From Nitrososphaeraceae archaeon (lineage in GTDB: Archaea; Thermoproteota; Nitrososphaeria; Nitrososphaerales; Nitrososphaeraceae): DNA of 64,000 bases. Each line of letters opens with the position of its first letter. Positions within the stretch are counted from its first letter, which is position 1. This document shows, piece after piece, positions 6,423 through 39,265 of this stretch. The notes beneath the pieces were generated by a model, which was not told the origin of the DNA, ran no database searches, and worked only from the letters and a program-made list of their open reading frames with translations. The stretch is from positions 32,001 to 96,000 of the forward strand of contig DATGZA010000014.1 of the NCBI GenBank assembly GCA_035297365.1, read 5' to 3'. A program made the translations under genes and the position numbers.

Positions 6423-6969
6423 AAACAGCCTTCACACGAGTTTGATCCTAAAAAAAATTAATGAAAAATATATTTATTGTCATACTTCTTTCGTAAAAAA
6501 AGATAGCGATTATCTAAAAATAATAGAAGGATTAAAAGAGGAATTTCCTAAATCAAATATCCAAATCATTAACACAAACTTGATTTATAATTTCGAACAC
6601 ATTTCCGAGGTTTTAAAAATCTCTCTTTCTGCCAAAGAGAGAGACATTTTGGTTGCTAGGAAAATTGAAGTGGATTTTTTAATGCGGATTATAGGAACCA
6701 GTCAAATTTCTTATGCAATAAAAATTGGAGGAATAAAATATGATCAATACAATACCCTTGTTGCTCTAAGTGATGATAATTTGGAAGCAAAAAAAATAAG
6801 AGAAAAATTATATTTATTGTTTGGTCATTCATATGATAAATTATTATTAGACAGCAAAGAACAGGCAATAAAATTAAATTATTTTAAAAAAGAATTTCAG
6901 AATCATCTTCTTAATGAAAAAATAATAATAGATGTCTTAAGAGAAAAAGCTATTTTGGTTACCTTATAA
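6406..6969 (+). CDS. cgi121: KEOPS complex subunit Cgi121
   Basis: ARKIEVDFLMRIIGTSQISYAIKIGG matches the Cgi121 core motif. Confidence 0.85.
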   Translation: MYMGVKNSLHTSLILKKINEKYIYCHTSFVKKDSDYLKIIEGLKEEFPKSNIQIINTNLIYNFEHISEVLKISLSAKERDILVARKIEVDFLMRIIGTSQISYAIKIGGIKYDQYNTLVALSDDNLEAKKIREKLYLLFGHSYDKLLLDSKEQAIKLNYFKKEFQNHLLNEKIIIDVLREKAILVTL

Positions 6970-8052: not shown

Positions 8053-8718
8053 GTGACAATGAAAAGCTTACTTATTATTTTAATAATCCTATGTTTTTGT
8101 TATTTTAATTTAGAATCTGTTTTTGCTCATGAAGAAATTAAATTGGGAAATATTACTGTGGGAGCAGGATGGACGAAGGAACCTCCGTTGTTAAACACCT
8201 TGAATCAAATTGTAATATCAATTTCTGAGAACGATAATCCGGTGAGAAATGCTTTGAAGGACATGATGATATCTATTCAATATGGAGGAATTTCGAAGCA
8301 ACTGAGTTTCCTGCCTTCTGAAGAATCCCCAGGAATTTACGTGGCAGAAATAATCCCTTCAAAAACAGGTACTTATTATATTTATATGGACGGTCAATTA
8401 AAAGATCAAAAAATTAAAACAGAATTACAAATTGAGGATGTGGAAGATACAAAACAAATTTCTTTTCCTCCAGCTATCCAAGATACTGCTGAATCTACAG
8501 CAATCATTGGCAAGCAAATCAAACCAATAATAAGTGATGTGATTAATCAAATAGATAATTCAAAGAAGGAATTAAATTTTACAAATTCATTGTTGCAGGA
8601 AGCTTTGAATAAATACGAATCAATTCAGCAAAACATGGATAAAATTAATTTCATTAGCTATATAGCAGTTGGTTTAGGAACAGTTGGAATTTTGCTCTTT
8701 ATTTTAAGGAAGAAATAA
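8053..8718 (+). CDS. exported, C-terminally membrane-anchored hypothetical protein
   Basis: Signal peptide ending VFA-HEE, beta-rich domain (GWTKEPP), coiled-coil stalk, C-terminal TM helix followed by RKK. Confidence 0.8.
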   Translation: MTMKSLLIILIILCFCYFNLESVFAHEEIKLGNITVGAGWTKEPPLLNTLNQIVISISENDNPVRNALKDMMISIQYGGISKQLSFLPSEESPGIYVAEIIPSKTGTYYIYMDGQLKDQKIKTELQIEDVEDTKQISFPPAIQDTAESTAIIGKQIKPIISDVINQIDNSKKELNFTNSLLQEALNKYESIQQNMDKINFISYIAVGLGTVGILLFILRKK

Positions 8719-8738
8719 TTTATACCGTATAGTTAATA

Positions 8739-9611
8739 TCATTTTTTGTTGTTTAATATATTCATAAATTTATACATTTTCTCATATGAATCTTTGAGAT
8801 CATGACATTTTTGGAGAGAAGATTTAATATTTGTTATATTTCGAAATAACTTGAATTCATTTTTGTCATTGATTAATTCGTTATATTTTTGGTTAATTTT
8901 GAAATAATTCAATAATTCTTTTTTAAAGAAATGATTATCAAAAAAAAGTGAATTAATTAAGTCAGGTTCATCATTCAAAATGCTCTCAGAAAGAATACAC
9001 TGAATTTTAAAGGTAGTTCCTCCAAAAGTCAATAAATCATAATAATTCTTCTCGTGTAAAACATCAGCAAATAAAATATTTACATAATGAGTAAGGCCCA
9101 ATACAACTGCCATCATCTGATCATGCAGACTTACATTTTTAACCTCTAAAATATTTGATTTAGGAAACATATTCTTAACTACTTTAATTTCATTTTCCCG
9201 ATTTCTTATTGGAATAAATAAAACCTTTAAAGCCTTCTCTCTAGACGCTCCTGGACCAAACATTGGATGTATACAAATAGGAACAATAAAATCTGAGATA
9301 ATTCTTAACTCTCTAAAGGATTTATTTTTTAAAGATGAAATCTCGACAAGCTTAGATGAAGGTTTCATTAATTTAGAACATGTTTTTATCATTTTGGGGA
9401 TGACTCTCAAAGGAACGCAAAGAATCACAACATCAGAAGTTTCAACACATTGTTGAAGACTATTTTCAATTATAATGTTCGGAAAATTTCCTAACGAATT
9501 AGTTCTTATATCATATGCTTTTAGTATTACATCTTTTCTATGAAGAAAATATTTTATGAACCAAGATCCCATCTTTCCGCTAGCGCCGATTATGGATATC
9601 TCTGTTTTCAT
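8739..9611 (-). CDS. tyrA: prephenate dehydrogenase
   Basis: GASGKMG, IHPMFGP, HDQMMAVVLGLTH. Confidence 0.92.
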   Translation of the reverse strand: MKTEISIIGASGKMGSWFIKYFLHRKDVILKAYDIRTNSLGNFPNIIIENSLQQCVETSDVVILCVPLRVIPKMIKTCSKLMKPSSKLVEISSLKNKSFRELRIISDFIVPICIHPMFGPGASREKALKVLFIPIRNRENEIKVVKNMFPKSNILEVKNVSLHDQMMAVVLGLTHYVNILFADVLHEKNYYDLLTFGGTTFKIQCILSESILNDEPDLINSLFFDNHFFKKELLNYFKINQKYNELINDKNEFKLFRNITNIKSSLQKCHDLKDSYEKMYKFMNILNNKK

Positions 9612-25978: not shown

Positions 25979-26013
25979 TAGCAATAACCGAAAAATGGTG
26001 TAAATTTTAAAAT

Positions 26014-26646
26014 TTGTTGATATTAGAGTGTAATAATAAAAAAGATATAACTACATGTATTTCAATCATCAAACAAGGCGCGGTAGTGGTTTTTCCCACC
26101 GATACAGTTTATGGAATTGGATGTGATCCATATAACGAAGAGGCAATTGAAAGGATATTTAGGATTAAGAGAAGAAGTAAAACCAAACCCCTTCCTATAT
26201 TGACTCATAATATAAAATCAGTAAAAAAAATAATCAAACTGGATAAAATTGGGAGTAAGTTGGCTAAAGCATTCTGGCCAGGACAATTAACCATTATAGG
26301 ACATTTAATAGATGATAATATTCCAAAAACTGTTACTGGTGGAAAGAAATCTTTGGGAGTAAGAATTCCAAACAATTCATGTACTCTGGAACTTCTCAAA
26401 GGTTGTAATTTTCTTTTAGGAACTAGTGCAAATATGTCTAACAAAGTTTCGAACGTTTCTGCTCAACAAATCTTGGAATCTGACCTGAAAGGATATGATG
26501 CGATTCTAATTGGAGACAATAATATATTGAAAAGGAATGTTTTAAGCTCTACAATAGTCGATATTACTGAAAATTCCCTTCAAATCATAAGAGAAGGACC
26601 AGTTAAATCGGAAGATATTTACGAAATCATATCTAGTCCAAAGTAG
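26014..26646 (+). CDS. tsaC: threonylcarbamoyl-AMP synthase (single-domain YrdC/TsaC type)
   Basis: FPTDTVYG, KRR...KP, FWPGQLT, GVRIP, TSANMS, SSTIVD. Confidence 0.92.
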   Translation: MLILECNNKKDITTCISIIKQGAVVVFPTDTVYGIGCDPYNEEAIERIFRIKRRSKTKPLPILTHNIKSVKKIIKLDKIGSKLAKAFWPGQLTIIGHLIDDNIPKTVTGGKKSLGVRIPNNSCTLELLKGCNFLLGTSANMSNKVSNVSAQQILESDLKGYDAILIGDNNILKRNVLSSTIVDITENSLQIIREGPVKSEDIYEIISSPK

Positions 26647-27185
26647 TGGATTTCAACCTAATCATCACAACATATAGACATAAAGAAGAAGAAGCTATTG
26701 AAGAAGCGATAACATTATTTGAAATGGCTGGTGATAGGAATGTTGATTTTGTTATAAGTAAAATCTCTGGGATTGTTTTAGGGTATACAAATCTTGATCA
26801 ATTTGAAATTATGTCTAAATTTAGGAAGATATTGATAGATGAGCCCTGGCAATTCAGATATATTCTAAGAATTATACCAATAGAAAGATCTATTAAAACA
26901 GATCTAAAAACAATTCAAAGAGAAATTGAAAATTTAGTCCAGAAAAAAATATCGTTTAATGATACGTACAGAATTACAGTGGAAAAAAGACACACGGAGT
27001 TAAGTACGAATCAAATAATAAATTATATTGCGAAGGAATTGCAGTTTAAGGTTTCCCTGGATAATCCTGATTGGATTATTTTAATACAAGTGATTGGTAA
27101 TTTAACAGGTATTTCAATAATCAAAAAAAATCAAATTTTTAATTCAGTGATAGAAAAAAGGAATATAGGATTGGAATTTGAATAA
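26646..27185 (+). CDS. THUMP domain RNA-binding protein
   Basis: RYILRIIPI, TYRITVEKR, KVSLDNPD; archaeal stand-alone THUMP pattern. Confidence 0.85.
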   Translation: MDFNLIITTYRHKEEEAIEEAITLFEMAGDRNVDFVISKISGIVLGYTNLDQFEIMSKFRKILIDEPWQFRYILRIIPIERSIKTDLKTIQREIENLVQKKISFNDTYRITVEKRHTELSTNQIINYIAKELQFKVSLDNPDWIILIQVIGNLTGISIIKKNQIFNSVIEKRNIGLEFE

Positions 27186-27497
27186 TACAATTTTTCTTGT
27201 GTTTTTTAAACGTTGATGAATATTTTTAACAAATTGCGAGTAAAAACATAATTATAGATCTTTGATAATTTGTTTATCAATTCATTTATAATTTTATTTC
27301 ATCATTTTTATTCTTTATTATCTGGAAAGATATGCGAGTTGATTTTGCCAATCATGCAGATTTAAAAGTATATCGAATCTATTCCATTTGAATTATTGTA
27401 TTTTTAAAATGCTGCGGACAGCATATATAAAAATCTGTTAATAAAGTAATGAAATACATATTTATTGAATTGTCTATTTATTTTGTATTATCAATTT

Positions 27498-28436
27498 ATG
27501 ACTAGGAAAAATCATTTTTTTGCAAAAGATATTGTATCAATCAAAGATTTTTCTAGGGAAGATCTGGAATTTATTTTTCAAGCGACTGACGTAATTAATA
27601 AATCAGGTCCTGATGAAAAAAGCGAATTAGGTAAAGGTAGAACTTTAGGTTATATTTTTTATGAACCTAGTACTAGAACAAGGATGAGTTTTGAAGCAGC
27701 GATGGCATCCCTTGGCGGTAGCTCGATTGGGATTTTTGATTCTAAATTTTCATCGATTGAAAAAGGTGAAAGTCTTGCTGATACTGTAAGAATAATGGAT
27801 TTATATTCAGATATAATAGTTTTAAGACATCCTAGAGACGGTTCAAGCAGATATGCAGCAGAGCTTTCTAATAATCCCATAATCAATGCGGGAAGTGGAA
27901 GCGAAGAACATCCAACACAGGCAATGCTTGATTTATACACCATAAAAAAAGAAAAAGGAAAGATAGATGGTCTAACTATTGGAATAGTAGGTGACTTGAA
28001 ATACGGAAGAACAGTATACTCGTTGTTATATGGATTACAAAATTATAGAGTTAATATTTACCTGATCTCTCCTCCAACACTGAACATAAGAAATGAATCA
28101 ATTTATGAAATTCAGAACAAGATAAAAATAAAACAAGAAAATAATTTAAATGACGTGATTAATAATCTGGATGTTTTATATGTTACCAGAATACAGAAAG
28201 AAAGGTTTCCAGATGTTCAAGAATATGAAAAAGTTAAGGGGACTTATAGAATCGATGAAAAAATCTTGAATAACACAAAGGCAGATTTGTCCATAATGCA
28301 TCCATTGCCAAGATTCGATGAAATATCTCATTCGATTGATGTGTCTCCAAAAGCAATCTATTTCAAACAGGCTGCATATGGTAAAGAGTTGAGAGCGGCG
28401 TTGTTAGCAGTCATATTAAATGAAAATCCGTTTTAG
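27498..28436 (+). CDS. pyrB: aspartate carbamoyltransferase catalytic subunit
   Basis: FYEPSTRT, HPTQ, GDLKYGRT, RIQKER, MHPLPR; ATG at 27498 preferred. Confidence 0.97.
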   Translation: MTRKNHFFAKDIVSIKDFSREDLEFIFQATDVINKSGPDEKSELGKGRTLGYIFYEPSTRTRMSFEAAMASLGGSSIGIFDSKFSSIEKGESLADTVRIMDLYSDIIVLRHPRDGSSRYAAELSNNPIINAGSGSEEHPTQAMLDLYTIKKEKGKIDGLTIGIVGDLKYGRTVYSLLYGLQNYRVNIYLISPPTLNIRNESIYEIQNKIKIKQENNLNDVINNLDVLYVTRIQKERFPDVQEYEKVKGTYRIDEKILNNTKADLSIMHPLPRFDEISHSIDVSPKAIYFKQAAYGKELRAALLAVILNENPF

Positions 28437-28543
28437 ATTTAGATTATACCAATTACTGTAAGTAATCTGACAATATTTTACTGTCAGGTAATACATTTAG
28501 TCACAATAGCTATTAGATGATATAATTAACATGATGCATCACA

Positions 28544-29610
28544 TTGGCTACTATTTGCACAATATCAAAAACACAATTTGAAAAAATATACAGATTTGAA
28601 CACTATACTAATGTATCTGAAAGAACTCCACTTGTTGTAGGATATGATAAACAGGTTCCTGCAGAGGGGGTAAGAGGTCTTCACAGAAATATAACATGGT
28701 TCTTATTGTTTGAAAAGATACCATGAAGAAGGTATAGAAGAAGCAATTCAGGTACAAGTCGGGCAATCTAGCAGAATTACGTGAAATGATTACCAGAGTA
28801 AAAATTGAAAATCCTCTAGTCAACATCTTACAGATCTAATTGTCAAAACGAGTGAAATTAGATATCCTCGCATATACCGTTTGTTTCACGATTTGGGATT
28901 CGAACAGAAGTACGAAAAAAAGTACTTTAATCACTGCATCTAAAAAAGAGAATGAATGTTTTATAAAATAACATAAAGATATACAACAATAATAACCAAA
29001 ACTGAATCACATTAGTATATACTGATAAATCGATAATCCTCATAGACTTTCTTGTAAGAAGAAAATGATAAAATAAGATAAACGACTAATTGTAAGAGTT
29101 AATCGGTCCCATCAAGATTCAGTCTTATCGTCTACCAGCAGTTTGAAAGGAGACCAGCTGTTTAGACAGTACAACTAATCTGATGCCAACACTTTTTCAG
29201 ATTATCTAAAACAGATTCAGGGGAAATTTCCAAAATGTTATCCCTTCTTGCATATGACAAAAGAACTTCCTTACAGATCAAAAAAGTACTGAAATATTTT
29301 GATAAAGATTCAAAGATTTTGATTCATGTAAGTCAGGCGTCATGATGAATATCAATACACCATCTTTCCAAACTTCATGTCTAGATATTCAAACATTTAG
29401 TTATTTTAGTTGAATGGTCCGACATCAACAAGAGATCTGACTTATATGCCAACAACATCTCTTGAATTCATGATAGTTGAGGTAACGCGAAAACCATACA
29501 AAATGATCTTCCCGTTTTAAATTATTACTAATTCTTTACAGATTTTAGAAGTAAAATATCCAAACATATTAGAACAAAATATTTAACCTGAATATGAGAA
29601 ACTACCCGTT
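28544..29610 (+). mobile_element. heavily degraded IS630-family transposase relic (HTH and DDE parts)
   Basis: Fragments across frames: DLIVKTSEIRYPRIYRLFHDLGFEQK, TASKKE, KRLIVRVNRSHQ...QLFRQY...YLKQIQGKFPKCY, LIHV/YMPTTSLEF, FRSKISKHIRTK, LNMRNY. Confidence 0.8.
29331..29442. mobile_element. 112-bp MITE-like insertion with terminal inverted repeats inside the IS630 relic
   Basis: TA-AGTCAG...CTGACT-TA; 15/20 identity over the terminal 20 nt; removing it rejoins LIHV to YMPTTSLEF in frame. Confidence 0.65.
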
Positions 29611-29716
29611 TCAAGGTCCAGAAAACACATACTAAGCGGCAAAGTTTATAGAATGAAACAATTTTATGATTTTTTAAATATAATACATAAAAATTTGGAA
29701 AATGATTAATTGTGTG

Positions 29717-32443
29717 TTATCCAGATACACAACTGCTAAATCCACATTCTATGCACACATTACATCCCTCAGTGATAATGAGTTTTGATTTACAAGATGG
29801 ACAGAGATCACTTTCGTCTATTTCCATCATTGTTTTTTGAATTAATTCAACATTCTTGTTAAAATTTGAAGTTATCAAAACATCGCGTTCTTCTTTTTTC
29901 ACGTTATCAAATATTTTACTTAGATATTGAACTATATATGGCTCTTTTATATGGGTATGAATATAATTAGTAACATAATCACTTGGTTTTACAATGAAAG
30001 ATTTTTCAAATGTATTTGTTCCTGGAATATGTAAAACCTGTTCATTTCGTGAGCCATCTCTATATACAGTAACACCCTTTAATCCCAATTCATGAGAAAG
30101 TAGATATGAAGATTTTACATCTTCTACTGTGACGTCTCCAGGCATATTTATTGTCTTTGCAATAGCATTACTTATCCATTTTTGCCATATTGACTGTGCC
30201 ATGACATGATCTGTCCAATGAATATCTATTGCTGTTGTAAATATGGATTGTATCCATTTAGGAATTTCATCAAGACCTCTAACAGAGCCATAATTATTTG
30301 CTATTTTTGTTAATATTTCATCATTATAAAGACCATTTTCTTTTAATATATTTTCAAATATTTTATTAGTATAGAAAAATCTCCCAACAGTGACACGTTT
30401 TTCAAAAACCAATGCAAAAACAGGTTCAACACCGTTAGAACAATCTGCTATCATGGATAATGTACCGGTTGGAGCGATTGTAGTAGTCCAAGAATTACGT
30501 ATTCCAAATTTTCGGATTTTCTCGGTTAAAGATTCCCAATCATAAGCGTGCTGGTCTTTCGGTATTTCATAACACCCAGATACAGGTATTTTTCCATTCA
30601 CATAATCAGTTTCTTTAAACAATGGAAAAGGTCCTCTAGATTTAGCAACAGCAACACTTTCTTCCATGCTATAATAGGTTAATGTTTCAGATAGTTTATT
30701 CATAAATTCATAACCTTCTGTCGATGTGTAGGGAATACGTAACAAAAACAATAGATCTGCTATTCCCATTATTCCCAATCCTATTCTTCTAGTAAGTTTA
30801 GTATTATAATCGATTTCTTCTATTGGATATTTGTTCACATCTATAACATTATCAAGAAATCTCGATGACAAACGTATGGCTTGCTCATATCTATGCCAAT
30901 CAAATTCATACATACCATCTGCCTTTCTTTTAACAAAATTTGCGAGATTTATAGATCCTAAATTACAGGATTCATAAGGATATAACGATTGTTCGCCACA
31001 CGGATTGGTAGCCCTCAATGGACCATTTTTAGCTTTGAGGCATGGATTGTATTTATTAATATTGTCAAAAAATATTACACCGGGTTCGGCACTTTTCCAT
31101 GCACTTAAAGATATAAGGTCTATCAATTGATGCGAATCTATCTGTTTTACGGGTTCGTGAGTCCTTGGATTTTTGAGTGTAAATTTATTGTTGTTTTTAT
31201 TTATCAAAGAATTCCAGAAATCATCCCATAGTCCTACACTTACATTAAAGTTTTCAAATACACCTGATTTCGTCTTTGCAGTAATGAATTTTTCAATATC
31301 AGGATGCCAAGCTTCCAATATCCCCATGTTTGCACCCCGTCTTTTACCTCCCTGCTTTACAACATCAGTAATGGTATCAATGATTCTCATAAATGATGCA
31401 GGTCCTGAAGCAACTCCCGATGTAGATGCAACAATGTCACCTTCAGGCCTAAGATCCGAATAATTTATTCCCACTCCACCTCCAGATTTAAAAATCATGG
31501 CTGCATCAGAAGATGTTTTCATGATCAGACCCATATCATCAGGTATATCCAGGACAAAGCATGCTGAAAGTTGACCTAATCTTGCCCCAGCATTCATTAA
31601 TGTAGGTGTGTTTGGAAGAAAATCTTTTGACACCATTAATTCAAAATATTCTTTGATTTTGTCTTCAAAACATGTAAATTTCCCCTGTACAATTAATTTT
31701 AATATTTCCTTAAATGATAATTTCATTTGCCCTCTGGAGGATAATTGAACAAACAATCGTATCAGAGATTCAAAATGATATTTATTAAGATAATATTCAC
31801 CTATTTTCAATTTCAGATCGAACTCGTTTATTTTATCATAGTAATTAGTTGCTTCTTCAATATCCTGATTGTATCCTCCAGCCAAATTGAAAATAAGAGG
31901 ATCATGTAATATATCAGCAATAGAGACAAGAATCGCAACTCTTTCGAACATCTCCTTGGGTCCTTCAATAATCTCATTATTATCATCACGCAAGAGATAA
32001 CGAGATGATAAAACACGTAAAGAATTGATATCAAAAGACTTGTCAACTTCATCCAAATCTTTTTTATTAAGAATTTTCATTTTATCTTCTCTTAGTTTTC
32101 TTCGTTCATGTCTATAGAGAATATAAGACTTCGCAGTATCTGCAAGACCATCTTCTATTAGAATTGATTCAACTATATCCTGAACATCTTCAACACTGGG
32201 AATTAAGCCCTTTTCAAATGAATTCCTAGTGATCTTTTCTAATACCTTATGACTCAACGTTTCAGCTAGTTTAAAATCTGGTTTACCAGTTGCAACCAAT
32301 GCCTTGTAAATAGCATGTGATATTTTTGCTTCATCAAAATTAACAACTCTACCATCTCTTTTTTTTATTTGAAAAATAGAATTATTTTTTGGTTTGTCTA
32401 CTTCAGATACTCCCATACAGCTCGCCTTCCAATTTTTTAACAA
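29717..32443 (-). CDS. nrdJ: adenosylcobalamin-dependent class II ribonucleotide reductase with N-terminal ATP cone
   Basis: KKRDGRVVNFD ATP cone, PNTPTLMNAG, LSACF, TNPCGEQ, TIAPTGT, C-terminal CPSC/EGCNVC; true start may be ATG at 32416. Confidence 0.95.
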   Translation of the reverse strand: MLKNWKASCMGVSEVDKPKNNSIFQIKKRDGRVVNFDEAKISHAIYKALVATGKPDFKLAETLSHKVLEKITRNSFEKGLIPSVEDVQDIVESILIEDGLADTAKSYILYRHERRKLREDKMKILNKKDLDEVDKSFDINSLRVLSSRYLLRDDNNEIIEGPKEMFERVAILVSIADILHDPLIFNLAGGYNQDIEEATNYYDKINEFDLKLKIGEYYLNKYHFESLIRLFVQLSSRGQMKLSFKEILKLIVQGKFTCFEDKIKEYFELMVSKDFLPNTPTLMNAGARLGQLSACFVLDIPDDMGLIMKTSSDAAMIFKSGGGVGINYSDLRPEGDIVASTSGVASGPASFMRIIDTITDVVKQGGKRRGANMGILEAWHPDIEKFITAKTKSGVFENFNVSVGLWDDFWNSLINKNNNKFTLKNPRTHEPVKQIDSHQLIDLISLSAWKSAEPGVIFFDNINKYNPCLKAKNGPLRATNPCGEQSLYPYESCNLGSINLANFVKRKADGMYEFDWHRYEQAIRLSSRFLDNVIDVNKYPIEEIDYNTKLTRRIGLGIMGIADLLFLLRIPYTSTEGYEFMNKLSETLTYYSMEESVAVAKSRGPFPLFKETDYVNGKIPVSGCYEIPKDQHAYDWESLTEKIRKFGIRNSWTTTIAPTGTLSMIADCSNGVEPVFALVFEKRVTVGRFFYTNKIFENILKENGLYNDEILTKIANNYGSVRGLDEIPKWIQSIFTTAIDIHWTDHVMAQSIWQKWISNAIAKTINMPGDVTVEDVKSSYLLSHELGLKGVTVYRDGSRNEQVLHIPGTNTFEKSFIVKPSDYVTNYIHTHIKEPYIVQYLSKIFDNVKKEERDVLITSNFNKNVELIQKTMMEIDESDLCPSCKSKLIITEGCNVCIECGFSSCVSG

Positions 32444-32519
32444 TCATCATTATTTATAAGAATTGTGAATTGAAAATACCAATAAAAATATTATATCAGG
32501 GAGGTTAGATACAATTTTA

Positions 32520-32537
32520 AACCCTAGATTTTGGGTT
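32520..32537. promoter_or_regulatory. imperfect palindrome resembling an NrdR box upstream of nrdJ
   Basis: AACCCTAGATTTTGGGTT; core CTAGATTTTG fits CwAnATnTwG. Confidence 0.35.
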
Positions 32538-32591
32538 ATTGATCCATCTAAATCATATATGTCAATAGATAGATTCTACAGTTATTTGTTA

Positions 32592-34754
32592 TTATATAGA
32601 TATTAATGAAATCTTATGAGAACCACAATATTCACAAATTCTATTATTAGTACATTGGGATCGTTTTCCACAAATATTGCATATTGCCAACCCAAAGGTC
32701 ATCCGAACAAAAGGGAGATCCAGTGATGATTCAATTAATGTTCTAACCTCTTCATCGGTAGAAATATTTTCAATATCAAGATCAATAGAAAGATTTCCTT
32801 TCAGAATTTTTTCTACAGCACAGTAATGATCACATACTGATTTCAAAGAAAGATTATTTGAAAGGACATCTGTGCCTTTAATTTGAAAACCTTGTGAATA
32901 GAGCTCTTGTTTATCGTTAGATGAATTGTCAGAAATTGCAATAGATTTACCGTATTTCTCATTGTCTAAACTCTTGAATCGATTTGAACTTTCATCTTTT
33001 AATATGGCTATCCCTATACTTGAATTTGATGATTCTTTAGTTTGTTCACCTATTATATCTACAGCCGTCTGTAAAACTTTACAAACAATATTTTCAGATT
33101 CGTTTCCAAATTTGTAACCTAAAATATTATAAATTGATTCATTAATTCCAACTAAATTTATCATAGCATCTATCTTACCAAGTTGTAGATTAGAAGTAAT
33201 TTTTGTTAGGAGTGGTGTAGTTCCCTTTTGTATATGCTCGGATATATTACTCACACGCTGGTAGATGACAGATATTAACGGTTTAAGCAATAACGCAAGT
33301 CTTGCTCTAAAATATGTCTCATCCCTATTTGATTGATATGCTATTCGTGGAAGATTTATTGACAAAGATTGAAGTGTTACTACCGTAGTTTTTACGGAAG
33401 GATGAACTGGTTTGCAAAGCCCGTACCTTCCCCGTATTTTTTGTTGAGAAAATGACATAATTCCACCAAGTCTAGAAATCTTTACAATTTTATCAGTGTA
33501 TTTGTAAATGGTGTTTCGGTCTTCATAGACGAGAGACAAACCAATATTAGGAATAGGTGTATTTACTATGTACCTGTAGTATCCATCAATTACGATATCT
33601 ATCAGGGACGAATTAGAGTCATCCAGATTGATAGGCAATGTGATGTAAGGGGAAAATGAGGAAACAGATGATATTGAAGATGAAAGAAAAAGGATTTTAG
33701 AAACTTTATTAACAAGATTTTCGCCTGTCTGAGCATATTTCCCAAGAAACTCGATGAGTCCTTCTAAAACCACTTCACGAGAAACCTCTCTAGTTAAAAG
33801 AGAAAGTAACAAAGGAATAATTGAATCATAATCATGTGCATTACACAATGACGTTATCCTTGAAATCCCTAGATACTTCCCTTTAATATGAGAAAGACTA
33901 TCTACTACAGAATTTAGATTGATAAAAATTGTATCAGGAAGTAAATTCCAGAAACCGCTCTTTCCAATATTAATTTCACCCATCAAATGCATGTCTACAA
34001 TATCTTTTGGGAGAGAATTATTAAGCAGATATTCAGTAAAAATTGAAGATGACGTTTTTATGAAAAGATCAGGAATTTCTACATTCGAACTTGTATCATT
34101 AATAATATTTATCAAATCTATGGGGGGTATTCCTAATCTTGCAAGTTTATTTCTATATTCATCATATCCATGATCTACTAGCACTGAATTGGTAGTTTCC
34201 CTTATTAGTGATGATGTAAGATAAGATGTTTGAATTTTGTAGATCTTATTCTCCACTTCCTCCGTAATCTTATTTGCAAGTTCCAAAGGCATATTCGCTT
34301 CACGTACTAAAGACTGAATGATTTTATTAGAATCAAATTCTTCTATCGAAGGTTTGGTAGTCCTAACATACAACTTACCGCTTTCTATTATCGATCTTTC
34401 CTCTATTTGACGAGCGAGACTTAAAACTAATTTACCTAGATTAGTTATAGTATATCTCCTTTCTGCCTTGTTAAGAGACACTAAAGATTGTCTGAGTAAT
34501 TTTCTTAGATGATAAGCAAATTTCCCAGATTCTTTCTTTGATTTAAATCCTGCTAATGATTTTAATTCGGAATAAGTTAATGGTCCCTTAGAATTTAAAA
34601 TTCTGAGAATATCAATACGATTAGGACTAGCCATGACTGAAAAAATCATTCTTACACGTCTTGAAGCTGATTCTAAAATTCCACCACGTTTCAAACTAGT
34701 CCTATTTGTGGTTTGGTATTGCACTCGCTCCATTGCACCCGTTATAATTAACAA
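32592..34754 (-). CDS. winged-HTH + ATP-cone + NrdD-like (class III RNR-derived) protein lacking the glycyl-radical loop
   Basis: ArsR-like wHTH (RIDILRIL...LTYSEL...YHLRKL), ATP cone (VRTTKPSIEEFDSNKI), NrdD-like motifs (MHLMGEI, SINLPR, LVGINE, RFKSLDNEKYG), terminal CxxC..CxxC, no R(V/I)xGY; ATG at 34733 is an alternative start. Confidence 0.85.
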   Translation of the reverse strand: MLIITGAMERVQYQTTNRTSLKRGGILESASRRVRMIFSVMASPNRIDILRILNSKGPLTYSELKSLAGFKSKKESGKFAYHLRKLLRQSLVSLNKAERRYTITNLGKLVLSLARQIEERSIIESGKLYVRTTKPSIEEFDSNKIIQSLVREANMPLELANKITEEVENKIYKIQTSYLTSSLIRETTNSVLVDHGYDEYRNKLARLGIPPIDLINIINDTSSNVEIPDLFIKTSSSIFTEYLLNNSLPKDIVDMHLMGEINIGKSGFWNLLPDTIFINLNSVVDSLSHIKGKYLGISRITSLCNAHDYDSIIPLLLSLLTREVSREVVLEGLIEFLGKYAQTGENLVNKVSKILFLSSSISSVSSFSPYITLPINLDDSNSSLIDIVIDGYYRYIVNTPIPNIGLSLVYEDRNTIYKYTDKIVKISRLGGIMSFSQQKIRGRYGLCKPVHPSVKTTVVTLQSLSINLPRIAYQSNRDETYFRARLALLLKPLISVIYQRVSNISEHIQKGTTPLLTKITSNLQLGKIDAMINLVGINESIYNILGYKFGNESENIVCKVLQTAVDIIGEQTKESSNSSIGIAILKDESSNRFKSLDNEKYGKSIAISDNSSNDKQELYSQGFQIKGTDVLSNNLSLKSVCDHYCAVEKILKGNLSIDLDIENISTDEEVRTLIESSLDLPFVRMTFGLAICNICGKRSQCTNNRICEYCGSHKISLISI

Positions 34755-34768
34755 GTAATTAAAACTAC

Positions 34769-34790
34769 TTTGTAAAGTTTTTTTTACAAA
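34769..34790. promoter_or_regulatory. perfect 8-6-8 inverted repeat, candidate operator
   Basis: TTTGTAAA-gttttt-TTTACAAA just upstream of a TATA-like TTTTAATT (34757-34764, - strand). Confidence 0.45.
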
Positions 34791-34840
34791 TAATATAATG
34801 TATTGTAATTAACCAATTGAACAAATAAAATTAATAACTG

Positions 34841-35449
34841 TTATATCAAAACTGGTTGACCTTCATGAAACTCGTTATCTTGTTCCTTGTAAATTCGTTT
34901 TTTATGTATACGAGTCGGTACTTCCGGAAGCTTGTTTTTAGTATCCTCTTCCATTGCAGATTGTACTTCATTAAGAATCTCCAATGCCTCAGCGTTTACA
35001 GGATATTGAATAGTGTCTGACTGTAAGTTTAGGTTAGTATTAATCAAAACATCTTCAGTTAAAGATGACATTTCTGAGAAAAGTAGTTTTGCTTGTGGAA
35101 CTGTATCAACTATATCTATCTGAACTTCTTTTATTGTATTAATCATTGGATTTATTGTATCTAAAATTCCAGCAAATTCGGAAATCGTAGAAAATCTAAT
35201 AACTATTACCTCCAGTGCCATTGACAATTTTTGTGTTATATTCTTTATTTTCCTAATATTTACCAATTCGCGAGCAATGACTTTAGCGTTACTAGTATCA
35301 CCGTTCTTTACGTTAATTGCAACTTTAACACATAAATCCCTATCAAGTGAGGCGAATCTTTTGTCAAGTATCCTCAGTTTAGCAAGTTGTGTATTAACAA
35401 CGACGGTTGCATGAGCAAGTCTGTTTTGAAGCTGGGGATACTTTTCCAC
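34841..35449 (-). CDS. Snf7 / CdvB (ESCRT-III) family paralog
   Basis: Helical hairpin AKVIARELVNIRKIK...SMALEVIVIRFST, acidic tail EALEILNE...KLPEVP. Confidence 0.82.
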   Translation of the reverse strand: MEKYPQLQNRLAHATVVVNTQLAKLRILDKRFASLDRDLCVKVAINVKNGDTSNAKVIARELVNIRKIKNITQKLSMALEVIVIRFSTISEFAGILDTINPMINTIKEVQIDIVDTVPQAKLLFSEMSSLTEDVLINTNLNLQSDTIQYPVNAEALEILNEVQSAMEEDTKNKLPEVPTRIHKKRIYKEQDNEFHEGQPVLI

Positions 35450-35546
35450 AATATCGTATTAATTTTCAGGATGTTAACTTTGATGTTAACCAATGTAGAC
35501 AATTTGATAAAGCATTATAAATTAACAAAACAGAAAATAGTTAAAT

Positions 35547-35933
35547 TCAGATTTTTTTAATTACTAGACCGTGTTTTTCATCGAATCCAGCTACCTTTAC
35601 TTTTGAACCTATAGGTAAATCTGATGGTGATTTAATCCCAGGAAGAAAACCAGACACTCTAATAAGAGCGCCTTCAAGGGAAAATACTACCCAAGCATAA
35701 CTTTCGACGTCATCAAATCCTTCGGGAGGGACGGCATGGATCGTGAAAGTAATTACTTTACCAATACCATCCAACTCTATTACATCAAACTTATTATTTT
35801 GACATTTAGTACAATAGACCATCGTTTCTAAAATAATTGTTTTACAATTTGTACATCTCCTAACTAAAATCTTCGAATTCTTTGCAGAAGATATGAATTT
35901 CTCTCTTAATCCAGAATTCAGTACGTCTTTCAC
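35547..35933 (-). CDS. DUF35 zinc-ribbon/OB-fold protein (thiolase partner)
   Basis: CTNC...CTKC followed by an OB fold (GKVITFTI...PPEGF). Confidence 0.9.
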   Translation of the reverse strand: MKDVLNSGLREKFISSAKNSKILVRRCTNCKTIILETMVYCTKCQNNKFDVIELDGIGKVITFTIHAVPPEGFDDVESYAWVVFSLEGALIRVSGFLPGIKSPSDLPIGSKVKVAGFDEKHGLVIKKI

Positions 35934-35942
35934 TTTACGCGG

Positions 35943-37097
35943 TTACACCTTTTTGAAAATATGAACTGCCGCACTAGCACCTGTAGCTCCAAAATTATGA
36001 GTAAGAGCTATTTTGGCATTCCTAATCGTTCTCTCTCCTGCTTTACCACTAAATTGTTCATATACCTCAACTATTTGTCCTATACCCGTTGCTCCAATTG
36101 GATGACCTTTGGACTTCAAACCCCCAGATGGGTTAATGGGAATTCTTCCTTGTCTTGATGTAGCACCATCCCTGATTTCTTTTACAGCTTTTCCCTTTTG
36201 AAAGAATCCTAAATCTTCAACATCAATTATTTCCGCTATAGTAAAACAGTCATGAACTTCTGCAAAATCTACATCCTTGGGCGAAATATTTGCCATCTTG
36301 TATGCCTGATTTGCAGCAGCAACGGTACTTGGAATAGTGTCTATTTCTTCTCGCCCTTGAACTGCTGCTGGTGAACCTCCGCGACCAGATCCTATCACTT
36401 CTATATATTCTCTGCCACTTCTTTTTGCGAATTCTTCACTACAAACAATAACTGCAGATGCACCGTCAGAAAAAGGACAGCAATCATAAAGTTTCAAGGG
36501 AGAAGCTACAACTGGAGAATTTAATACATCATCTACTGTTATTCGCTTACGCATATGTGCCTTTGGATTCAATAATCCATTTTCATGATTTTTAACCGCC
36601 ACAAGTGCTAGATCCTCTTCATTTGCTTTAAATTTAGTCATATAGGCTCTAGCAATGGACGCAAAAAGGCCAGGAAAGGAAGCACCATTACCACCTTCAT
36701 AAAAGAAATCAGAACAGTAAGAAAAGAGTGTCGTACTCTCTGTCGTTCCGGTGTGAGTAACTTTTTCCACTCCCAGAGCTAAAACACAATCATAAAAGCC
36801 AGCGGCAACATTGGCATACGCTTCTCTAAACATCACAGACCCAGAACCACATGCAGATTCTATTGTAAGACCAGGAACATGAGATATACCAAGATTACTC
36901 ATTATGACAGGAGCCATATGTACTTGTTTATCAACAACACCAAAAACGTTGGAGATATACCCAGCCTCGATATCTTTTGGTGTAATTCCTGCGGACTCTA
37001 TTGCATCTACTGAAGCATTTAATGCTATTTCAATAATACTTTCATTTAATTTACCATATTTTGTACTACCTGCTCCTAAAATGCAGACCTTATTCAC
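35943..37097 (-). CDS. archaeal thiolase (acetyl-CoA C-acetyltransferase)
   Basis: ESACGSG, DGASA, EVHDCF, NPSGGLKSKGHPIGATG. Confidence 0.93.
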   Translation of the reverse strand: MNKVCILGAGSTKYGKLNESIIEIALNASVDAIESAGITPKDIEAGYISNVFGVVDKQVHMAPVIMSNLGISHVPGLTIESACGSGSVMFREAYANVAAGFYDCVLALGVEKVTHTGTTESTTLFSYCSDFFYEGGNGASFPGLFASIARAYMTKFKANEEDLALVAVKNHENGLLNPKAHMRKRITVDDVLNSPVVASPLKLYDCCPFSDGASAVIVCSEEFAKRSGREYIEVIGSGRGGSPAAVQGREEIDTIPSTVAAANQAYKMANISPKDVDFAEVHDCFTIAEIIDVEDLGFFQKGKAVKEIRDGATSRQGRIPINPSGGLKSKGHPIGATGIGQIVEVYEQFSGKAGERTIRNAKIALTHNFGATGASAAVHIFKKV

Positions 37098-37250
37098 TTC
37101 AGTGATTTATTGTGTGTATTATAAAAATGTTAGACACTATGTATATTGAAAAATAATATTTGTATATAATTTTATCAATCAATGATAAAAGCAAAAAAAT
37201 AACTTTTTTTATTTTCTACATTTTTATGGATCTATTATTCTACTAAAAGT

Positions 37251-37355
37251 ATGTCAAAAGATAACCGTAAAACACATGCATACAGTGAGAAGAGATCTAG
37301 AAGTAAAAAGATTGGAAAATTAGAACGCAGAATCAGAAAAAAACCAAAAGCATGA
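37251..37355 (+). CDS. 34-aa highly basic micro-protein
   Basis: MSKDNRKTHAYSEKRSRSKKIGKLERRIRKKPKA*; ATG start, AT-rich promoter-like upstream region. Confidence 0.55.
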   Translation: MSKDNRKTHAYSEKRSRSKKIGKLERRIRKKPKA

Positions 37356-37416
37356 TTTCTGATAAAAATATATTTCCAACCTAAAATTTATAACTATTTT
37401 TTTCTATTGAAAATTA

Positions 37417-37530
37417 TTGAAAAATAGTAATTCAAATACAAAGAAAACCACGAAAAAGGGGATAGTAATAACAGCAATAATAGTTGTTACGATAATAGCT
37501 GCTAGTTTTTTAGTTTATTTCATTCCTTAA
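37417..37530 (+). CDS. 37-aa single-pass membrane micro-protein (or truncated membrane-anchored gene)
   Basis: TTG start; KKTTKKG then a hydrophobic run IVITAIIVVTIIAASFLVYFIP*. Confidence 0.5.
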   Translation: MKNSNSNTKKTTKKGIVITAIIVVTIIAASFLVYFIP

Positions 37531-37534
37531 ATCA

Positions 37535-37700
37535 AAATGACAGGATAGGTAGTGATATAATCGCAGATCAATCCAGCATTCTCAGGGTTGCCTCCCGCAA
37601 GTTTGGTAAGGGTTTTTCTGATATAGGATCTATGGAGTGTGGTCAAGAATCAATTCTTTATTTCATTATCTATATCATGTTCTTGTTTTATTGCAACTAC
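37535..37700 (-). pseudogene. probable N-terminal remnant of a tRNA-associated tyrosine integrase
   Basis: ...IKN*FLTTLHRSYIRKTLTKLAGGNPENAGLICDYITT; recalls N-termini of Nitrososphaera-type integrases (NPENAxxICDYI); about 50 nt from the tRNA 3' end. Confidence 0.5.
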
Positions 37701-37750
37701 TCTTGAAAAATCCCTTTATCTTATTAAACTTGCGTTTGGACCCCGAAGAA

Positions 37751-37849
37751 TGGCGCCGGGAGAGGGATTTGAACCCTCGGGACCATGCGGTCACAGGCTT
37801 TCTTGATGACTTTCCAGGCTTGCGCCCTTCCAGGCTAGGCGACCCCGGC
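37751..37849 (-). tRNA. tRNA-Ser(GGA) with 12-nt canonical-position intron (37800-37811) and encoded CCA
   Basis: GCCGGGG/CCCGGC acceptor stem, long variable arm, GGTTCAAATCC T-loop, anticodon GGA at 37813-37815, G discriminator plus CCA. Confidence 0.93.
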
Positions 37850-38030
37850 ACTAAAATATGCAATAACCTTGAACCAATTTATTTAACCTTCGAAAATATA
37901 ATCTATTGGATGATTCCCTGATTTTATTTTTTCGAAAAGCAAAATTTTGGACTAAAGTCAATAAAGTATTTGTATAGATTTTCTCGAGAGATAAAATAAA
38001 AATATGGCATAAGATGAAAAATAACGGAGA

Positions 38031-38189
38031 ATGACAGGTTTAGAAATATCAGAAAACTGTAAGAAGAATAAACATGTTGATTGTAATGAATGTATGTGTA
38101 ATTGTCACATACCAGGAACAATGGAAAATTTAGCAAAAAAAATTGCTAAATTAGATAAAACTATCCCTGGTATAGGCGAGACCATATAA
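38031..38189 (+). CDS. 52-aa Cys/His-rich metal-binding micro-protein
   Basis: MTGLEISENCKKNKHVDCNECMCNCHIPG...; C-x4-H-x2-C-x2-C-x-C-x-C-H; preceded by GGAG. Confidence 0.6.
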   Translation: MTGLEISENCKKNKHVDCNECMCNCHIPGTMENLAKKIAKLDKTIPGIGETI

Positions 38190-38266
38190 AATCAACTTGT
38201 TTTTACTGGATAGAAAATCGGTATCTTATAGATCACTATTAATGGCAATGATTCAAATAACAACGA

Positions 38267-39265
38267 TTACGAATTCCAACCTTTAGGATATGTATTGGGT
38301 TTCATTATTATCCTTTTCATCTTAAATGCAATTCCATTTTTACTTACGGCTATCTGGGGGACCGACATCAGAGATTCAGCCAAACCTACTATTTCCCCTT
38401 TCAAAGTGTACACACCCACCAACTCTCCAGTATCAAGTTTTTTTGATATTTGTGATATTCCCGGAATTGCCAGTTGTGCACCATGACATAATGCATCTAC
38501 TGCGGTATCTCTAATAACCACACAAGGAATTTCAGTTAGACATACCTCTATAGGACTTATCATAATTCGTAATTTTTCTTCGTCATTCTTCTCCTTGTAA
38601 GACAAATACGCGGAATTCAAATCATGTAGTTTGACCAATCCATTTTTCTCAAAAAAATTACTTACTCTGGTGCGTCGAAGCTCCACCATTGTGGCTCCTG
38701 AACCTAATACCTCACCGATATCATAAATCAGTTTTCTTATATAAGTACCAGCTTGACACAAGATTCTCAAGAGGATAATTCTGTCACCAGATTCCACAAA
38801 TTCCAGTTCATATATTTTTCTTATTCTAGTCATTCTCTTAACGGAGGAACGTTGTGGAGGTCGTTGGTAAATATCGTCATGAAATTCTTTTAGAACAGAC
38901 TCTATCCTTTCTTTTTGTAAGTCAGAATGAATTCTTGCTATTGAATAATATTCTTTCGGACCCAGTAATAACACAGATAATGCTTTTGTACCTTCTCCTA
39001 GCCCCATTGGTAACAATCCAGTTGCAGCTGGATCTAGCGTCCCGCTATGTCCAGTTTTTTGAATATTTAACATTCTTTTTACCCATGAAGCTACCTCATG
39101 ACTGGTTGGTCCAGAAGGTTTATCAATTAATATAATACCATAATCTAGTAATTTATCAAGTGGTCTTTCGAAAGGACTATTACCATATCTGTCATCGGTA
39201 ACGTTATCACTTAACGTAATCAAATCTTGAAATTGATATAGATTTCTAAATTTCTTTTCAGTCAT
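38267..39265 (-). CDS. cbf5: H/ACA pseudouridine synthase Cbf5
   Basis: DKPSGPTSHE, GHSGTLDP, QRPP, GTYIRKL, C-terminal PUA domain. Confidence 0.96.
   Translation of the reverse strand: MTEKKFRNLYQFQDLITLSDNVTDDRYGNSPFERPLDKLLDYGIILIDKPSGPTSHEVASWVKRMLNIQKTGHSGTLDPAATGLLPMGLGEGTKALSVLLLGPKEYYSIARIHSDLQKERIESVLKEFHDDIYQRPPQRSSVKRMTRIRKIYELEFVESGDRIILLRILCQAGTYIRKLIYDIGEVLGSGATMVELRRTRVSNFFEKNGLVKLHDLNSAYLSYKEKNDEEKLRIMISPIEVCLTEIPCVVIRDTAVDALCHGAQLAIPGISQISKKLDTGELVGVYTLKGEIVGLAESLMSVPQIAVSKNGIAFKMKRIIMKPNTYPKGWNS

Follow-up and report, generated by a model that had tools for sequence, protein, structure and literature searches.

A winged-helix protein built on an apparently non-catalytic anaerobic ribonucleotide reductase fold is a candidate nucleotide-responsive regulator of reductase genes in ammonia-oxidizing archaea

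The DNA analyzed here, a stretch of 64,000 nucleotides from a Nitrososphaeraceae archaeon (hereafter the window), carries on its minus strand an open reading frame (ORF) for a protein in which a winged helix-turn-helix (wHTH) domain is joined to an ATP-cone and to a barrel resembling that of NrdD, the class III (anaerobic) ribonucleotide reductase (RNR). The protein is termed the regulator below, after the role proposed for it. The ORF spans 32592..34754 and encodes 720 amino acids from a TTG start codon; the gene probably starts instead at the ATG at 34733, giving 713 amino acids, because 713-residue homologs in the databases begin there (MERVQYQ) and the conserved upstream DNA ends at that ATG. 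The domains follow one another, all on the minus strand, as the wHTH (residues 37-111; 34422..34646), the ATP-cone (residues 129-200; 34155..34370), a conserved linker directly after the cone (YRNKLARLGIPP) and the NrdD-like barrel (residues 216-716; 32607..34109), within which lie the codons for the finger-loop region RYGLCK (33411-33428) and a CxxC...CxxC zinc ribbon formed by C692, C695, C707 and C710 (32625..32681). Downstream on the same strand is nrdJ (29717..32443), encoding a class II, B12-dependent RNR that has an ATP-cone of its own and a zinc ribbon at its C terminus. An earlier note on this DNA had placed the regulator gene 148 bp upstream of, and co-oriented with, an intact nrdJ, and this description held: nrdJ scored 750.5 bits with TIGR02504, the PF02867 barrel model was matched from position 1 to 523 of 523, and the gap between the two ORFs is 148 bp, or 175 bp with nrdJ starting at its probable initiation codon, the ATG at 32416. 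The spacer between the two genes (32417..32591, minus strand) is presumed to contain the promoter targeted by the regulator.

The three-domain build of wHTH, ATP-cone and NrdD-like barrel, first read from the translation alone, was borne out by both Pfam and family-profile matches. In the Pfam scan the wHTH was recognized by DUF7347 at 40.1 bits (cut-off 27.6) and by HTH_20 at 32 bits (cut-off 27), the cone by PF03477 at 36.2 bits (cut-off 25.8) and the barrel by NRDD (PF13597) at 58.8 bits (cut-off 26.2). The NRDD match covered residues 458-716 and only profile positions 276-534 of 562, and the glycyl-loop end of the model was therefore left unmatched. The NCBIfam equivalog model for NrdD, TIGR02487, returned 54.5 bits against a cut-off of 326.35, and by these scores the protein is a homolog of NrdD and not an equivalog. 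When the single sequence was searched against solved structures, nothing useful was obtained (best E-value 0.054, to an unrelated protein). A family profile built from 73 representatives matched the solved NrdDs 8p23, 9d3x, 4coi, 4u3e and 1h78 with E-values of 4e-39 to 3e-30, and its N terminus matched the ArsR-type regulator HlyU (3jth; E-value 7.5e-4). The metalloregulator model NF033788 scored 23.6 bits against a cut-off of 55, and a match at the level of that family was not reached. The putative recognition helix of the wHTH bears the motif GKFAYHLRKL, of which H82 is invariant among the 73 representatives and G77, F79, Y81 and L83 are each kept in at least 90%. Several Nitrosopumilaceae orthologs (L081, L083, L085, L088, L090 and L091) have an acidic N-terminal extension of variable length with D/E-L-D-type repeats, encoded by ~100-250 nucleotides ahead of the wHTH-coding part; it is absent from the window protein. 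Relatives carry the public names 'anaerobic ribonucleoside-triphosphate reductase', 'ArsR family regulator' and 'helix-turn-helix domain-containing protein', as might be expected from the prediction that such a protein would be misannotated as an anaerobic RNR.

The fate of the catalytic residues was followed in an alignment of the window protein with 80 Nitrososphaerales and 30 other Thermoproteota relatives (111 sequences) and five true NrdDs. The residue columns were defined on E. coli NrdD (C175, the GCR motif with C384, and RVCGY with G681) and an archaeal-virus NrdD. The roles of the radical glycine, finger-loop cysteine, first-strand cysteine and zinc site are those of P. copri NrdD as given in the available part of PMC11226230, according to which the thiyl-radical cysteine of the finger loop is E. 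coli C384 (P. copri C416) and the second cysteine, on the first barrel strand, is E. coli C175 (P. copri C171). The window protein has T275 in the C175 column and L446 in the C384 column, while the cysteine of RYGLCK (C447) sits one column away from the latter; a cysteine within two columns of the C384 position was found in 16 of 80 Nitrososphaerales orthologs, and C447 itself recurs in close relatives only. The chain ends ...CEYCGSHKISLISI*, 10 residues past the fourth cysteine of the zinc ribbon, and therefore contains no glycyl-radical loop of the form R(V/I)xGY. Thus the replaced MGCR finger-loop motif, the missing glycyl loop and the combined loss of catalytic glycine and cysteines, all claimed in the earlier note, were each confirmed.

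The same losses run through the whole family. A cysteine was present in the C175 column in 0/111 relatives and 0/73 representatives, compared with all five true NrdDs, and in the C384 column in 2/111 relatives and 1/73 representatives; the four zinc-binding cysteines were retained by 111/111 relatives and 5/5 true NrdDs. The glycine column was a gap, the entire loop being absent, in all 81 Nitrososphaerales sequences. A remnant of the glycyl domain (Y-x-R-x-x-x-x-Y...W) persists in 29 sequences that are not of the Nitrososphaerales type, and in these the radical glycine is replaced in 27 and kept in two (L118 and L119), both of which lack the two cysteines; these counts were read from the alignment by eye, the automatic count being one column off. 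No sequence among the 111 relatives or the 73 representatives had all three radical residues. By comparison, the motifs QCC[AR] and SR[IV]TGYYQ were kept in 19/19 full-length true NrdDs encoded by genomes of this phylum; one more NrdD, cut short at 483 amino acids, was left out. Judged by these residues, catalysis by the regulator protein is ruled out.

The genome gave no sign of the missing parts elsewhere. The assembly is 2.52 Mb and 97.1% complete, and it encodes an archaeal AmoA (392 bits), so the organism is an ammonia oxidizer. The only PF02867 match in the genome is nrdJ, and the assembly contains no match to the class I small subunit (PF00268), no further match to NRDD and none to Gly_radical. 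The earlier report of no NrdG activase in the window was upheld, and genome-wide too no hit to TIGR02495 or TIGR02491 exceeded its cut-off; the best radical-SAM candidate is QueE-like (77 bits, versus 46 for NrdG, both far below cut-off). A separately encoded glycyl-radical domain accompanied by NrdG, which the note had named as fatal to its proposal, was thus found in neither of its parts. The search for nrdR that it had called for gave no match to TIGR00244 in the genome, and no NrdR model appeared in the scan of the regulator protein. In an order-wide sample of 61 genomes, NrdG was over cut-off in one and NrdR in none. A third ATP-cone is encoded outside the window (G000:C14:257576-257785; L177), in a frame of 292 amino acids that is neither an RNR nor a regulator of the present type.

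The regulator gene is under purifying selection, in line with one of the checks proposed at the outset. The ratio of nonsynonymous to synonymous divergence (dN/dS) for the whole gene was 0.14 and 0.12 relative to the nearest two orthologs whose dS was not saturated (0.11 and 0.18), and lay between 0.04 and 0.14 over all close pairs tested. No nonsynonymous change was present in the wHTH (versus L015 and L017) or in the cone and linker (dN = 0), and dN/dS was 0.15-0.17 in the barrel and ~0.4 in the zinc ribbon, which is short and offers few sites. Mean pairwise identity among the 111 relatives was 0.71 for the wHTH, 0.69 for the cone with linker, 0.35 for the barrel and 0.32 for the zinc ribbon, the last despite its four invariant cysteines. 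Together these values indicate that the predicted DNA-binding and nucleotide-binding modules are the most constrained parts of the protein and that the ex-catalytic barrel is still constrained.

The cone is of a variant type, beginning VRTT (then EEFD...KI) in place of the usual KRDG, and 16 columns of cone and linker are invariant across the 111 relatives. Both this variant and the linker after it (YR.KLTRLGLPVYDV) recur in the true archaeal NrdDs of loci L125 and L138, which are themselves neighbors of the regulator gene in other lineages. The sharing of cone and linker with these sister enzymes argues that the regulator carries the native cone of the ancestral reductase and not a degraded copy.

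The family is large and widespread. A word-indexed protein search returned 4007 proteins at E ≤ 1e-3 among 8000 candidates; the 120 matches listed were all 710-719 amino acids long, and 119 of them had the same four Pfam domains. An exhaustive search gave 881 cluster representatives at E ≤ 1e-3, of which 149 reached E ≤ 1e-30. At least 598 loci were recovered by a genome scan, the best 80 all belonging to Nitrososphaeraceae or Nitrosopumilaceae, and a match at E ≤ 1e-10 was obtained in 351 of the 401 genomes sampled from the phylum, including 59/59 other genomes of the order in that sample. Named members elsewhere include Bathyarchaeota and Odinarchaeia records. The ESM Atlas has no model of the window protein; its clusters of the same architecture, taken as leads only, come from Nitrososphaerota, Bathyarchaeota, Promethearchaeota, Thermoproteota and Nanobdellota. 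Some relatives without the zinc ribbon keep the wHTH and cone, for example P0232 (565 amino acids). A merely local truncation, which the earlier note had listed as an outcome that would count against it, is contradicted by this distribution (351/401 genomes) and by the absence of any relative with all radical residues (0/111).

The origin of the family was explored in a quick maximum-likelihood tree of 71 sequences, made by a short search without bootstraps, containing several long branches and rooted on a single outgroup row, E. coli NrdD. All 47 regulators fell on one side of a branch with an SH-aLRT (approximate likelihood ratio test) value of 100, as sister to 22 true archaeal NrdDs (99); the enzymes of the virus and of E. 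coli lay outside both groups. Within the regulators, the Nitrososphaerales clade, without a glycyl domain, was nested among members that retain the remnant. This quick tree points to a single origin of the family as sister to archaeal NrdD, and suggests that the Nitrososphaerales form is a derived branch that lost what remained of the glycyl-radical domain. The simplest history would be that an archaeal nrdD was duplicated once and fused to a wHTH, that the radical residues disappeared early, and that the glycyl domain was lost afterwards. Some true nrdD genes of the phylum (L166-L174, for instance G041:C35:146542-148221) lie in open frames of 1100-1680 amino acids that match the query in two separate halves and look like intein insertions.

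One part of the earlier proposal was not supported as worded. It had supposed that the anaerobic enzyme was exapted in an aerobic archaeon, with the oxygen lability of glycyl radicals given as background; the same cysteine-less architecture, however, lies directly upstream of a true, intact nrdD in other Thermoproteota families. Oxygen was probably not the cause, because the family without radical residues occurs also in lineages that keep a true nrdD beside it, and the family probably predates the aerobic ammonia oxidizers.

The gene neighborhood was compared across lineages. The synteny check proposed in the earlier note gave nrdJ as the next gene downstream, in the same orientation, at 59 of the 66 Nitrososphaerales loci that extend 1500 bp or more beyond the regulator gene. 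Outside the order, 20 strong matches from 20 genomes of other families were chosen by family code before their neighbors were examined. The gene immediately downstream was nrdD in three, nrdJ in two (one only a fragment at a contig end), dcd, encoding dCTP deaminase, in two, pyrB in seven, pyrI in three, and none of these in the remaining three. The three nrdD neighbors are on the same strand as the regulator, and the two that were scanned gave full-length Pfam NRDD matches of 518 and 488 bits; both dcd neighbors are likewise same-strand. In the three nrdD loci (L125, L127 and L138) the order is regulator, nrdD and convergent pyrB, while in the window it is regulator, nrdJ and convergent pyrB. 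The class of reductase differs and its position does not, as would be expected if the regulator targets whichever reductase lies downstream.

The pyrB gene of the window, for aspartate carbamoyltransferase, is at 27465..28436 on the plus strand, convergent with nrdJ (TIGR00670, 361 bits, cut-off 237). The 1.28 kb between the 3' ends of pyrB and nrdJ (28437-29716) contains no ORF of 80 or more amino acids, no Rfam match at E ≤ 0.01 and no tRNA. In other lineages pyrB is followed by a pyrI-like gene; such a gene turned up in only one of 80 Nitrososphaerales loci. In L127, a 108-residue ORF (6533-6859, minus strand) between the regulator and the true nrdD encodes what looks like a small CxxC redox protein of the glutaredoxin/NrdH type. 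Directly upstream of the regulator in the window, the gene at 34841-35449 (minus strand) has a weak CdvB/ESCRT-III-like match (63.6 bits, far below cut-off); a cell-division-type neighbor beside a regulator of deoxynucleotide (dNTP) supply may or may not be meaningful. An Rfam scan of 26000-38500 returned nothing except one tRNA, at 37754-37849 on the minus strand (36.9 bits, 96 nucleotides); ARAGORN finds none there, and it is probably an intron-containing archaeal tRNA.

The regulatory DNA offered lineage-specific candidates. A 69-bp block upstream of the regulator gene (34731..34799, minus strand) is a candidate promoter and autoregulatory site. It is almost identical in eight orthologous loci, including L019, L021, L024 and L026, whose regulator proteins are 57-65% identical to that of the window; synonymous divergence in this group exceeds 1.8 (dS versus L026 and versus the related L018). 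The block holds an AT-rich, TATA-like stretch and an inverted repeat, TTGTAAA-N6-TTTACAA (34770-34789), that is the sole perfect match in the window and a candidate autoregulatory site. In the spacer upstream of nrdJ, a TATA-like CTTATAAATA (32451-32460) and a conserved leader, AAATTGGAAGGCGAGCTGT, precede the ATG at 32416; comparison within the same lineage showed only this box and leader to be conserved upstream of nrdJ, and no operator could be defined there.

In Nitrosopumilaceae, the palindrome TATGAAnTTCATA was present upstream of nrdJ in 14 of 16 loci and absent upstream of the regulator gene, and the spacer also contained GCGATnATCGC in seven of 16. GATC boxes in these loci occurred at 18.3/kb upstream of the regulator and 12.5/kb in the spacer, against 3.6/kb elsewhere, and two loci contain ~10 such boxes at a spacing of 10-11 nucleotides. 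No NrdR-box-like operator was found; the candidates (palindrome, phased GATC boxes and inverted repeat) are specific to their lineages.

Enrichment of k-mers (k = 5-8) in 34-40 dereplicated regions upstream of nrdJ, nrdD and dcd returned only the start-codon and leader region, the TATA box and GCAGCTGC. The last of these lies 1-36 nucleotides past the regulator stop codon in most Nitrososphaera-type loci that carry it, and it was rejected as an operator; in several loci it sits in a GC-rich hairpin with a run of T behind it, resembling a terminator. Such a hairpin after the regulator stop suggests separate transcripts. The motifs ATCTA (z = 1.3) and TCTACA (z = 0.9), picked by eye, were not enriched and were discarded, as was TTGTWAAAAAA, a pattern derived from the same two promoter sites that are its only matches in the window; two occurrences against 0.93 expected, reached in 23 of 100 shuffles, is not significant. 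Four metatranscriptome runs (three studies) contain contigs that overlap parts of the regulator gene and of nrdJ with an identity of at least 95%. They show neither transcript starts, ends nor levels, and are only a weak sign of expression because such RNA libraries may hold DNA.

One interpretation of these data, which on balance we favor, is that the regulator is probably a nucleotide-responsive transcription factor for genes of dNTP and nucleotide metabolism, analogous to NrdR and unrelated to it. Its most likely targets are the adjoining reductase genes, because catalytic residues were lost, a DNA-binding head was gained and the genes are adjacent. In such a scheme the N-terminal wHTH would bind DNA, the cone, and possibly also what remains of the barrel, would bind adenine nucleotides (ATP and dATP being the predicted ligands), and the barrel with its zinc ribbon would act as a dimerizing or transducing scaffold. 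A nucleotide-dependent change of conformation or oligomer would in turn change how the protein binds the promoter of the downstream reductase gene, nrdJ here and nrdD in some other lineages. The regulator's own promoter would probably be a target too, and dcd and pyrBI may be further ones. Whether the regulator would act as repressor or activator, and on which regulon, belongs to the conjectural part of the model.

It could be, more tentatively and at less than even odds, that the family is of great age and acts throughout the archaea as a master regulator of how deoxynucleotides and pyrimidines are supplied, that in it the allosteric machinery of a dead NrdD (ATP-cone, linker and barrel) turns the ATP/dATP ratio into DNA binding by the wHTH, and that the regulator stayed in place while the reductase beside it was swapped in situ. 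If such a swap took place, the layouts regulator-nrdD-pyrB, seen where nrdD is kept, and regulator-nrdJ-pyrB, seen in ammonia oxidizers, would make the locus a record of the change from anaerobic to aerobic dNTP synthesis, with the control circuit itself left as it was.

Note, however, that several observations weigh against the favored interpretation. The cone has no usual K-R pair, and we know of no ATP-cone of the VRTT subtype that has been studied. In seven of the 66 Nitrososphaerales loci the regulator gene does not adjoin nrdJ; it is intact in the two of these that were examined (L027 and L036), one with an inserted transposase and the other with unrelated genes. In L036 a DDE transposase (8235-9158, plus strand) occupies the usual place of nrdJ directly after the regulator gene, which is one route by which the linkage was broken. 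The pyrB and pyrI neighbors are convergent in 10 of 20 loci, which is linkage and not co-transcription. No shared operator was found across lineages by k-mer enrichment, despite the near-invariant recognition helix, and GAT-C codons of the acidic N-terminal extension account for some of the GATC boxes counted ahead of the regulator. Finally, the residues that form the specificity site and loop 2 of P. copri NrdD (E290, N298 and 304-311, as given in the available part of PMC11226230) fall in unmatched insert states of the family profile, and dNTP sensing is therefore unsupported other than through the cone.

Several of these points would equally suit the best-surviving alternative, which we nevertheless consider unlikely: that the protein is a DNA-binding regulator and yet not an ATP/dATP-sensing regulator of RNR genes. 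Here the cone and barrel would be a mere scaffold, or would bind some other ligand, and the regulon would be broader or different, taking in pyrimidine synthesis, replication or the cell cycle. The missing canonical K-R pair would be compatible with another ligand, but the cone with its linker is the second most conserved part of the protein after the wHTH (16 invariant columns, dN = 0), and its type is that of the sister true NrdDs. A different regulon would be in keeping with pyrB and pyrI, and not RNR genes, as the commonest neighbors outside Nitrososphaerales (10/20), with the seven loci unlinked from nrdJ and with the CdvB-like gene directly upstream in the window (again below cut-off); the neighbors that are downstream on the same strand are, however, RNR genes of two classes, and dcd.

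A role at the protein level is less probable still. The regulator would then serve the active reductase, or other enzymes of nucleotide metabolism, as a partner or buffer that binds nucleotides, and its wHTH would make protein contacts, which such domains can mediate. Selection on the barrel and zinc ribbon (dN/dS of 0.15-0.17 in the barrel; four cysteines in 111/111) is more than a simple DNA switch would seem to need and fits this idea. Yet the wHTH is the most conserved domain and carries an ArsR-like recognition-helix motif, and relatives of the P0232 type have lost the zinc ribbon and kept wHTH and cone. The partner would also have to change between lineages, being either NrdJ or NrdD, two enzymes that differ in quaternary structure.

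The two remaining explanations are close to excluded. That the protein is still an RNR or another radical enzyme, with its radical coming from an unconventional source or from a glycyl-radical piece encoded by a separate gene, would explain the significant NrdD homology, the retained zinc ribbon and the many public records that name an anaerobic reductase, but it has only a very slim chance of being correct: both radical cysteines and the glycyl loop are gone, the 97.1% complete genome holds no second PF13597 or Gly_radical match and no NrdG over cut-off, the organism has AmoA and an intact nrdJ, and the true NrdDs of the phylum keep every motif. That the gene is a decaying, functionless relic is the least credible of all, since the lost catalytic residues and the C-terminal domain lost in this lineage stand against frames that are intact in 351/401 genomes, a dN/dS of 0.04-0.14 and RNA-library contigs (four runs, three studies, in which DNA may be present) covering parts of the gene at 95% identity or more.

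A search of full-text literature, with subscription journals and supplements outside its scope, found no description of a protein combining wHTH, ATP-cone and NrdD-like domains, or of DUF7347, and no published case of a radical enzyme that lost catalysis and became the sensor of a DNA-binding regulator; no description of such a protein was present in the available parts of the RNR and NrdR papers PMC9669993, PMC9110341, PMC4390871, PMC9531940 and PMC11226230. Catalogues of RNR sequences in supplements could list regulator proteins. ATP-cone-based regulation of RNR genes is already known; the build seen here appears to be new.

Few microbes in soil and sea are as abundant as ammonia-oxidizing archaea. 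Control of RNR transcription is explained in bacteria by NrdR, and we know of no counterpart of it for these archaea. The regulator family is thus a concrete candidate for their missing RNR regulator and, if the proposal is true, would stand as a clear example of how a radical enzyme can become a sensor domain. It also puts right a common misannotation, the 'anaerobic ribonucleotide reductase' ascribed to obligate aerobes, which could lead metabolic reconstructions and metagenome-based inferences on anaerobic capacity astray. Finally, its variant ATP-cone and ligand-free reductase scaffold could be used to study how cones transmit their signal.

Among known systems, the nearest in proposed logic is NrdR, the bacterial RNR repressor, which combines a Zn-ribbon with an ATP-cone and is rare in archaea (mechanism and distribution as given in the available part of PMC9110341). 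Both proteins pair an ATP-cone with a DNA-binding module, a predicted one in the regulator, and are encoded next to RNR genes, the regulator is present where NrdR is missing (0/61 genomes), and in both ATP/dATP status would set RNR transcription. The regulator is nevertheless no homolog of NrdR: its predicted DNA-binding part is an N-terminal wHTH and not a zinc ribbon, its cone is a variant one, and it bears a dead reductase barrel of ~500 residues. With NrdD it shares a homologous barrel, ATP-cone, linker and zinc ribbon, being placed as sister to the NrdDs of the phylum, and it differs in having no radical residues or glycyl loop in this lineage, no NrdG in the genome and an additional wHTH. 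Its N-terminal 75 residues match HTH_20 and DUF7347 and, in the form of the family profile, HlyU, and so resemble the ArsR/SmtB proteins; however, ArsR proteins are metal or redox sensors of ~100 residues, whereas the sensor part of the regulator would be an ex-enzyme of 600 residues. The broadest likeness is to the trigger enzymes and pseudoenzyme regulators such as PutA, BirA and NadR, in which an enzyme fold is reused as the ligand sensor of a DNA-binding regulator of its own pathway. Most of those proteins keep their catalytic activity, whereas the regulator appears to have lost it, and the fold donated in this case is that of a radical enzyme.

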